Shown in pieces: positions 5,586-60,874 of a stretch of 64,000 nucleotides of DNA (the stretch's first letter is position 1; the number at the start of each line of letters is the position of its first letter). Source of the stretch: Escherichia coli (GTDB lineage: Bacteria > Pseudomonadota > Gammaproteobacteria > Enterobacterales > Enterobacteriaceae); assembly GCF_044647545.1 (NCBI RefSeq), contig NZ_CP172818.1; one strand, written 5' to 3'. Position numbers and translations under genes: made by a program. A model generated the notes under the pieces. It saw only the letters and a list, made by a program, of their open reading frames with translations. It made no database searches and was not told where the DNA came from.

Positions 5586-5620
5586 AAAAAGGCCATCCTT
5601 TCGGATGGCTTTGTTGATTT
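5586..5620. terminator. bidirectional intrinsic terminator (yhdZ on plus strand, rrnD operon on minus strand)
   Basis: GC stem gccatcc-tttc-ggatggc flanked by T-runs on both strands, between yhdZ stop and the 3' end of rrfF. Confidence 0.65.
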
Positions 5621-32749: not shown

Positions 32750-35145
<2,396 letters not shown>

Positions 35146-35165
35146 TCAATCGCTCAATGACCTGA

Positions 35166-35660
<495 letters not shown>

Positions 35661-35799
35661 CTGGGGGGGCGGGCCGCGCCGCGCGGGGGCGCTTGTTCGC
35701 CCTCTCTGCACGGCTGGTGTCCGGCAGTTCGGCCCGTCTCTGGTCGGTTTTTCTGGGTGAAAGGTGGCGGCCGCGCGATTTACGCGTGCCCGCCCCCCC

Positions 35800-36204
35800 C
35801 CCCTTACTCTGGTCAGGTCTTTTGTTCTATCATGGGAGTTTGGGCTAATCGATTCCCCTGATCGGTTTAGCCGATGCGTTATGGGGGGCGATTATTGGTT
35901 ACGGCACATTCGCTGTCATTTACTGGGGGTATCGCATTCTGCGTCATAAAGAAGGATTAGGCTATGGTGATGTGAAGTTTCTCGCCGCCCCCTTGGTGCC
36001 TGGCATACATCCTATCGACTGGTTTTCCTTGCTGCCTTCATTGCTTGCCGAGCCGTAGTTCATTGGTCTGCTCATGAGAGGAAAAGAGTCATTAAAAAAT
36101 CTCCCGCTGCCGTTGTGGGAGCATCTTCTGCGCGAACTGACGGGTTTCGTTGTAGGCTGGGATAGTTATGCTGGCAGGCCGTTAATCTTTAACTTTTATT
36201 TGTG
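35800..36204 (+). pseudogene. gspO: 3' remnant of a type II secretion / type IV prepilin peptidase gene (gspO-like), frameshifted
   Basis: Translation gives PLLWSGLLFYHG, then after a stop ...IGYGTFAVIYWGYRILRHKEGLGYGDVKFLAA, then a frame change before a C-terminal PLPLWEHLL stretch; no start codon or 5' half; the 3' end overlaps the convergent bfr stop. Confidence 0.6.
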
Positions 36205-36658
36205 ATTGCAGGTAATTTTGTAGACCGATTTTACCGATGAGATCCAGCTCAGTTTCGAGCCAGTCAATATGACCTTCTTCATCGGCAAGGATCTCGATCA
36301 TCATATCACGGCTAACATAGTCATGAACGCTGTCGGCATACGCGATAGCCTCACGGAGATCCTTAGCGCCTTCCAGTTCTAATCGCAGGTCGGATTGCAG
36401 CATCTCCTCGACATCTTCACCAATCCCCAGTTTGCCTAAATCCTGTAAGTTGGGGATTCCTTCTAAAAACAAAATACGCTCGATATATTTATCAGCGTGT
36501 TTCATCTCATCGATAGATTCATGGTATTCGACGTCATTGAGACGCATCAGGCCCCAGTTTTTAAACATCCGGGCATGGAGAAAATACTGATTGATTGCGA
36601 CAAGCTCATTTCCCAATAGTTTATTGAGATAATTTATGATTTTAACATCACCTTTCAT
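36182..36658 (-). CDS. bfr: bacterioferritin
   Basis: 158 aa from [32 protein letters not shown]; ferroxidase-site residues; the track ORF has a 7-codon 5' extension. Confidence 0.9.
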
Positions 36659-36729
36659 TTTTAGTCCCTCCGCTTCCACTATTAGAGCGTAGATGGGGCT
36701 AGCGGGATGTCAAAAAATAAGCGTGGGCT

Positions 36730-36924
36730 TCAGGCAATCTCTTTAAATTCTGGCATCTGCATCAACTCGTCCTGCATCACTTCGCGCGCGGCGCGAATGC
36801 ACTTACCGCATTGATTTCCCACAGGAATAAACTTACGCAATTGTTGGAAAGATTGCGGATGAAACTGACGTACTGCCTGGCGAATTTTTTTGTCACTTAC
36901 ACCATTACACAAACAAACGTACAT
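36730..36924 (-). CDS. bfd: bacterioferritin-associated ferredoxin
   Basis: 64 aa, MYVCLCNGVSDKKIRQAV..., Cys ligands for a 2Fe-2S cluster. Confidence 0.9.
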   Translation of the reverse strand: MYVCLCNGVSDKKIRQAVRQFHPQSFQQLRKFIPVGNQCGKCIRAAREVMQDELMQMPEFKEIA

Positions 36925-36944
36925 GATTGCTCCCGTTCAAATTC

Positions 36945-36985
36945 TGCGCAAAGTGTAAATGAGAATGGTTATGATTACAATAGCA
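36945..36985 (-). promoter_or_regulatory. putative Fur box / promoter region upstream of bfd-bfr
   Basis: Minus strand reads tgtaatcataaccattctcatt, resembling the GATAATGATAATCATTATC Fur consensus; by eye only. Confidence 0.3.
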
Positions 36986-37030
36986 CAATTTTATTTGCGC
37001 CATAGTTCAGCGAGGAACGACAAAACGGGC

Positions 37031-37051
37031 AAAAAGGGCGCCGAAGCGCCC
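37031..37051 (-). terminator. intrinsic terminator downstream of tufA (end of str operon)
   Basis: Minus strand GGGCGC-TTCG-GCGCCC hairpin followed by TTTTT, about 30 nt after tufA stop. Confidence 0.75.
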
Positions 37052-37080
37052 TTTTCAATTCAAAACTAATTAACGAGTAA

Positions 37081-38322
<1,242 letters not shown>

Positions 38323-60685: not shown

Positions 60686-60874
60686 TTGCTCATGCCGGGC
60701 GGCACTATCGTCGTCCGGCCTTTTCCTCTCTTACCGCGCTACGTACATCTATTTCTATAAACCCGCTCAATTTGTCTGTTTTTTGTACAAACATGAAATG
60801 TCAGACAATTCCGTGACTTAAGAAAATTTATACAAATCAGCAACATACCTCTTAAGGAGTATATAAAGGTGAAT

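Follow-up and report, generated by a model that had tools for sequence, protein, structure and literature searches.

The chiA- and gsp-less rpsJ-tufA interval of an Escherichia coli genome is very probably the ordinary short allele of a two-state locus

In E. coli K-12 MG1655, the genes between the S10 and str operons are arranged in the order rpsJ (b3321)-gspB-gspA-gspC..O-bfr-bfd-chiA (b3338)-tufA (b3339), and the gsp+/chiA+ genome LTC101 shows the same gene order. In the E. coli DNA analyzed here (the window, i.e. the whole stretch of 64 kb), bfd is found next to tufA and bfr next to a short region that ends at rpsJ. The question raised by this locus is whether two neighbors of a retained bfr-bfd pair have been deleted, as an initial annotation of the sequence implied, or whether the window carries a different version of the entire interval. 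In the following, the K-12-type version is called the long allele and the version devoid of chiA and gsp the short allele. The features of the locus, with their positions in the window, are given below.

35166..35477, minus strand: rpsJ, gene 1 of the S10 ribosomal-protein operon (NF001861, E 8e-51); left conserved anchor
35478..35661, minus strand: putative S10 leader and -10 hexamer TATAAT (35656-35661), assigned from the sequence; final stretch common to both alleles
35662..35799, no strand: window-private 138-bp segment, 74% GC, with G7 and C11 runs at its ends
35800..36178, plus strand: prepilin-peptidase remnant (hopD-like, Peptidase_A24), located by tblastn and DNA alignment
36182..36658, minus strand: bfr (bacterioferritin), short-allele type (TIGR00754, E 6e-80)
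36730..36924, minus strand: bfd (bacterioferritin-associated ferredoxin), short-allele type (NCBIfam NF007803, E 4.6e-44), start codon at 36924
36955..36979, minus strand: Fur-box-like array upstream of bfd (consensus match)
37015..37029, no strand: window-private shortened junction, 26 bp fewer, just inside the right cassette boundary
37030..37057, minus strand: terminator hairpin of tufA and the str operon, 12-pair stem with T-run
37081..38265, minus strand: tufA, the last gene of the str operon (TIGR00485, E 4e-239), stop at 37081; right conserved anchor

From rpsJ to fusA, the three genes on the minus strand are bfr, bfd, and tufA, and the gap between rpsJ and bfr is 704 bp. When the 64-kb window was searched by tblastn with ChiA, GspA, GspB, GspD, GspE, and GspM, no match was obtained anywhere in it. 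The gspC-O operon was not found between rpsJ and bfr (queries GspD, GspE, and GspM), nor was the divergent gspA-gspB operon found beside rpsJ (queries GspA and GspB), and the 156-bp spacer between bfd and tufA, the place of chiA in K-12, had neither an ORF nor a ChiA match. The sole secretion-related trace in the window was the degraded prepilin-peptidase remnant at 35801-36178, between rpsJ and bfr. [quoted passage not shown]

The bfd-tufA spacer extends from 36925 to 37080. It contains a terminator-like hairpin on the tufA strand (37057-37030) and a Fur-box-like site (36979-36961) with 14 of 19 matches to GATAATGATAATCATTATC, a score that was reached by 4 of 1000 shuffles; the Fur-box-like array is identical in other short-allele genomes. 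The spacer would thus both end transcription of the str operon and supply a Fur-regulated promoter for bfd. The initial annotation had given the end of bfd (36924), the tufA stop (37081), and the intervening 156 bp correctly, and its description of the spacer as a terminator plus the upstream region of bfd agrees with the single hairpin, the Fur-box-like site, and the lack of an ORF. It was likewise right in stating that both chiA and gsp are missing at the locus, as the tblastn searches of the 64 kb confirmed, and in stating that K-12 carries chiA between bfd and tufA.

Comparison of the window with LTC101 showed that the two sequences are closely similar on either side of the interval and strongly diverged within it. 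The 262 bases up to 35661, on the rpsJ side, were 100% identical, which places the left cassette boundary at 35661/35662, and on the tufA side the alignment picked up at window position 37029 with 98% identity from there on, K-12-type homology resuming at the terminator. Between these flanks, the bfr-bfd segment had a DNA identity of 77.5% (79.7% for bfr and 76.0% for bfd against the K-12 type), and the Bfr and Bfd proteins were each 88% identical to those of K-12. This divergence is far beyond within-species variation. The rpsJ gene is 100% identical in the window and in the K-12-type and short-type genomes, tufA is 99.6% identical across E. coli, and the natural variation in the short cassette of 11 other genomes amounts to 10-48 substitutions and 0-1 gaps per 1768 bp. 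The K-12-type bfr-bfd allele is absent from the locus, and the sequences present are those of the short allele: the coding DNA of bfr and bfd shows zero differences from that of E. coli FDAARGOS_497, so that both proteins are identical to their counterparts in that strain, and this exact Bfr protein is widespread in the short layout. Since the diverged bfr-bfd pair lies between flanks that are 98-100% identical, the whole S10-str interval constitutes one alternative cassette.

The frequency of the two arrangements was counted over 5426 complete E. coli genomes. In 2255 of them (41.6%), bfd directly adjoined tufA, and the entire short layout was matched in 2251. The chiA gene was present in 3163 genomes and gspD-gspE in 3134. 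The counts for bfd beside tufA and for chiA add up to 5418 of the 5426, and the two states thus partition the species almost exactly; chiA and gsp are present or absent together across E. coli. The same counts (3163 + 2255) suggest that few, if any, of the short-allele genomes carry chiA elsewhere. O157:H7 carries the short layout, and in CFT073 and an ST131 strain the query match was limited to tufA, indicating the long layout. The short allele normally measures about 1.5 kb, or 1368 bp as written in the window, and the long allele about 16.6 kb (16.65 kb). The claim that bfr-bfd had stayed intact between two missing neighbors was therefore only partly borne out, as the ORFs are intact and the loci absent, but the pair belongs to a different allele (77.5% DNA and 88% protein identity). 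Nor is the absence itself noteworthy, for the same arrangement occurs in 41.6% of complete E. coli genomes, in O157:H7 (PMC3707838), and in Salmonella (PMC6735719).

That T2SS-alpha and chiA form an accessory locus is already published. The K-12 locus, consisting of gspAB, gspC-O, and chiA, goes back to Francetic et al. 2000, as cited in PMC11390585, and the name T2SS-alpha to Strozen et al., as cited in PMC3707838. The system is missing from O157:H7 (PMC3707838), was found in 58% of a set of ETEC genomes (PMC6446980), and occurred in 29% of bovine commensal versus 63% of mastitis strains (PMC11390585). In a pan-genome GWAS, gsp, chiA, bfr, and bfd co-varied as a single accessory block with identical strain frequencies (PMC11390585). 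A single linked cassette with a diverged bfr-bfd pair explains why the core genes bfr and bfd were listed as 'accessory' alongside gsp and chiA in that study.

The peptidase remnant was informative as to which allele the window carries. In tblastn, it was 63% identical to residues 35-155 of a 155-aa protein of FDAARGOS_497, and at the DNA level it was 88.9% identical to the FDAARGOS_497 sequence, with about 25 indels. It has no start, its 5' end is gone, and it contains many frameshifts. The intact 155-aa Peptidase_A24 gene, convergent with bfr, is not present in the window, where residues 35-155 alone are recognizable, and as written the gene would be either a pseudogene or a sequence error. 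The intact homolog carries PF01478. Against K-12 GspO, the remnant had 54% identity over 63 residues, about half the length of the match to the 155-aa protein, and the intact protein (HopD155) is approximately 41% identical to a K-12-type GspO (L046). Most likely, the truncated A24 peptidase that the short allele encodes is a vestige of a far older T2SS once located here.

We also examined the site in other Enterobacterales by a species scan with Bfr as the query (one genome per species), followed by a tblastn panel over the returned loci. The best 80 loci of the scan included no Escherichia or Salmonella (E. albertii and E. fergusonii were absent), and for the nearest outgroups we rely on the literature, according to which Salmonella has bfd, bfr, and hopD as the genes separating its str operon from its S10 operon (Brandis, Cao & Hughes 2019, PMC6735719). 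The results showed that the tufA-bfd-bfr-X-rpsJ site is kept across the order in several states. The short form with a truncated A24 peptidase was found in Pluralibacter, Citrobacter sp. MGH106, Kluyvera, Silvania, Enterobacter sp. kpr-6, and Buttiauxella, and a short, peptidase-less form in Pantoea, Erwinia, and Xenorhabdus. A gsp cluster without chiA was present in C. amalonaticus S646, C. braakii, Chimaeribacter, and Rahnella, and gsp together with chiA in Enterobacter sichuanensis, Trabulsiella, the MAG UBA5654, and the E. coli long allele. Kosakonia oryziphila had chiA and a full-length gspO on a contig that stops before gspD/E. The clusters of gsp genes at the rpsJ-tufA site are thus spread over Citrobacter, Enterobacter, Trabulsiella, Chimaeribacter, and Rahnella.

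In most of the Enterobacterales species, the tufA-bfd gap was about 125-200 bp, and chiA was seen in a subset alone; accordingly, the usual state is bfd beside tufA, to which chiA has been added in some of the species. Inserts of approximately 0.9 to 3.2 kb between tufA and bfd were observed in Yokenella (L038, 1-3303), Kosakonia sacchari (L016, 429-1323), and Providencia (L083, 700-1817); they have no similarity to ChiA, so that something else fills the chiA slot in these genomes. Two genomes labeled Citrobacter amalonaticus had similar bfr-bfd sequences, one of them (L017) with a full gsp cluster but no chiA, the other (L010) with the short form and a truncated peptidase. As these two differ in gsp, presence/absence polymorphism of gsp at this site is not unique to E. 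coli. In a neighbor-joining tree of bfd plus bfr (657 nt, simple p-distances), the E. coli short allele grouped with Citrobacter (92% bootstrap) and the K-12 allele with the gsp+chiA MAG UBA5654 (95% bootstrap).

Taken together, these results make it very probable that the chiA- and gsp-less window carries the ordinary short allele of the locus and not an unusual double deletion. The cassette would comprise the tufA terminator, bfd, bfr, and a relic prepilin-peptidase gene, followed by the S10 promoter, and E. coli would hold two deeply diverged versions of it, a short one (the window, O157:H7, and the FDAARGOS_497 lineage) and a long one (K-12, CFT073, and ST131). The lack of chiA and gsp would then be due to the strain carrying the short allele, and not to two deletions in a K-12-like locus. 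Had a K-12-like ancestor lost gspBA-gspC..O and chiA by two separate, independent deletions while keeping its original bfr-bfd, both loci would be gone and the bfr-bfd ORFs intact, just as observed, and the prepilin-peptidase fragment could pass for a remnant of gspO. However, bfr-bfd is only about 78% (DNA) and 88% (protein) identical to K-12 between flanks of 98-100% identity, the remnant matches the short-allele 155-aa protein better (63%) and over a stretch roughly twice as long as the one aligned with K-12 GspO (54%, 63 residues), intact HopD155 is only about 41% identical to a K-12-type GspO, and the same short layout is seen in other genera. The divergence of the bfr-bfd alleles rules out deletion around a retained core, and this explanation has next to no probability. 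The possibility that the source strain in fact has gsp and chiA, and that the region was collapsed or mis-joined during assembly, is highly improbable as well. Private, error-like sequence does lie exactly in the non-coding parts of the cassette, one stretch of it being a GC-rich filler at the left boundary. The bfr and bfd genes, however, have short-allele coding sequences in which not one base is substituted compared with FDAARGOS_497, the remainder of the 64 kb matches that genome, which carries a clean short allele, almost perfectly, and there are no fragments of chiA or gsp in the window.

As to the direction of change, we infer that the short allele would be the native enterobacterial arrangement, and that short and long alleles may have been swapped between lineages by homologous recombination in the near-invariant ribosomal and EF-Tu genes on either side. 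The grouping of the short-allele bfr-bfd with Citrobacter is what vertical descent would predict, and the DNA identity of 85-86% between the short-allele bfr and the closest Citrobacter bfr appears to fit such descent, no recent donor being visible. In the opposite case, which we consider unlikely, the long allele would be original in Escherichia and the short allele would have been brought in by recombination in the flanks, the donor being a relative similar to Citrobacter or Salmonella. Such an order of events would agree with the gsp clusters found at the site in many Enterobacterales, including Yersiniaceae-level relatives, with the resemblance of the short-allele peptidase to a relic of a gsp cluster, and with the phylogroup-level diversity of the long allele in E. 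coli (95-100%), which shows that it is old in the species. The presence of gsp at this site in genera as distant as Rahnella and Chimaeribacter may mean that the T2SS is ancestral and that the short form is derived and spread later. On the other hand, the modest identity to the closest Citrobacter bfr and the lack of a visible recent donor speak against an entry from outside, the short allele groups where the species tree would put E. coli, and it, too, has phylogroup-level diversity (10-48 substitutions per 1768 bp). Moreover, the nearest relative found for the K-12 allele is a distant MAG, at about 80%.

Although the genes of the window are those of an ordinary short allele, the sequence around them is not. 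The 64-kb window is nearly identical to FDAARGOS_497, with one 10-kb flank at 100.0% identity. Only eight differences lie outside the cassette, and seven of these fall within the rRNA operon. The eight (at 5610-5614, 6338, 10347, 10687, 10881, and 60844) consist of three single-C deletions beside the 5S gene, a C inserted into the 23S gene, three G-to-A changes in 16S, and, in the tsgA-nirB interval, a SNP at 60844. Within the cassette, there are four private changes. At 35662-35799, the 138-bp segment (74% GC) stands in place of 295 bp of the normal short allele, which include the conserved octamer GCTTGCGT (putative -35 of S10) and the 5' end of the prepilin-peptidase gene. The remnant itself has about 25 small indels and few substitutions at 35800-36170, the bfd-bfr spacer has a 1-bp deletion at 36662, and 26 bp are missing from the bfd-tufA spacer at 37015-37029. 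In total, the cassette differs from that of FDAARGOS_497 by 4 mismatches and 32 gap openings, the opposite of the natural, substitution-dominated variation.

The 138-bp segment is the most GC-rich 138-mer of the window, and its ends are the only G/C runs of at least 7 in it. The ends form an inverted repeat, GGGGGGGCGGGC...GCCCGCCCCCCC, and the segment folds end to end (z = -3.8). It contains NotI and MluI sites. No match to the segment was found in the 5426 complete E. coli genomes or in plasmids, the JGI metagenomes yielded no copy of a 28-mer taken from it, and an Rfam scan of 35000-37300 at E ≤ 1 gave no match. It could therefore not be assigned to a known element. An origin of the segment as a degraded copy of the replaced 295 bp was also rejected, the longest common subsequence of the two being no better than that of shuffles. 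None of the five ORFs spanning the odd region was present by exact look-up in a collection of 15 billion proteins, a weak result given that the choice of start codon matters. We also rejected the idea that the peptidase patch had been acquired from a different species, because the differences are nearly all indels (4 mismatches versus 32 gap openings).

The usual length of the bfd-tufA spacer in chiA-less E. coli is 182 bp, and the 156-bp version, 26 bp shorter, was matched in none of the 5426 complete genomes; a 32-mer across the junction was not found in the JGI metagenomes. The junction piece of the window is a perfect subsequence of the normal 41 bp (p ~0.02). The length of 156 bp should thus be treated cautiously, and fine-scale claims on this spacer need more than the window sequence alone.

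Error in the sequence or its assembly is the most likely source of the private changes in the cassette. A RefSeq complete genome, HH97 (L005, NZ_CP116409.1), has a different scramble of the peptidase 5' region (1225-1750), the annotation describing the gene as frameshifted and incomplete, and its bfd-tufA spacer, too, is shortened, by a deletion of 32 bp (2600-2650). This second, independent case affecting the same two spots hints that the locus may be prone to a recurrent technical problem. It is very unlikely that the changes are real and arose by a localized, indel-type mutational process or through an unknown small element, in a strain that is close to FDAARGOS_497 over about 62 kb. If they were, a 138-bp segment bounded by inverted repeats would have removed the apparent -35 of S10, about 30 small indels would have accompanied it, and the disturbance in HH97 would mark a genuine hotspot.

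The left boundary of the alleles lies directly upstream of the S10 -10 hexamer (window 35656-35690; L001, L006, and L097). In both natural alleles, the octamer GCTTGCGT is located 16 nt upstream of the TATAAT, although the intervening spacers differ, and alignment of the upstream sequences showed that GC-rich sequence has replaced it in the window. The octamer is a putative -35 element of the essential S10 operon. As it is kept at equal distance from the -10 despite unrelated spacers, the promoter elements appear to be conserved across the allele boundary. A consensus promoter scan called no promoter in any of the alleles, the natural ones included, and is for this reason uninformative as to a loss of the S10 promoter in the window.

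The ChiA/T2SS-alpha trait has been linked to epithelial adherence and to fitness in mastitis and adherent-invasive E. coli. The predicted negative status of the source strain is a useful annotation of modest importance and not a discovery. What the locus illustrates is that the rpsJ-tufA interval acts as a single swappable cassette with a deeply diverged bfr-bfd pair.

Among known systems, the window is closest to the short layout of Salmonella enterica (bfd-bfr-hopD), O157:H7, and FDAARGOS_497, with which it shares the order and orientation of tufA, bfd, bfr, an opposing A24 peptidase, and rpsJ as well as the lack of chiA and gsp. It differs from this layout in that the peptidase gene is broken and has lost its 5' end, the spacer is 156 instead of 182 bp, and a 138-bp GC-rich segment replaces 295 bp beside the S10 promoter. 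The adjacency typical of the short cassette, with bfd directly downstream of the tufA terminator and a gap of about 180 bp, is present in the window with its 156 bp. The K-12 T2SS-alpha locus occupies the same rpsJ-tufA site and has a homologous, diverged bfr-bfd pair and a prepilin peptidase of a homologous family, but its 14 gsp genes and chiA are missing from the window, and its interval is 16.6 kb compared with about 1.4 kb. The loci of C. amalonaticus S646, C. braakii, Chimaeribacter, and Rahnella combine traits of both: as in the window, bfd adjoins tufA (gaps of 146-350 bp), whereas, unlike in the window, a full gsp cluster lies between bfr and rpsJ.
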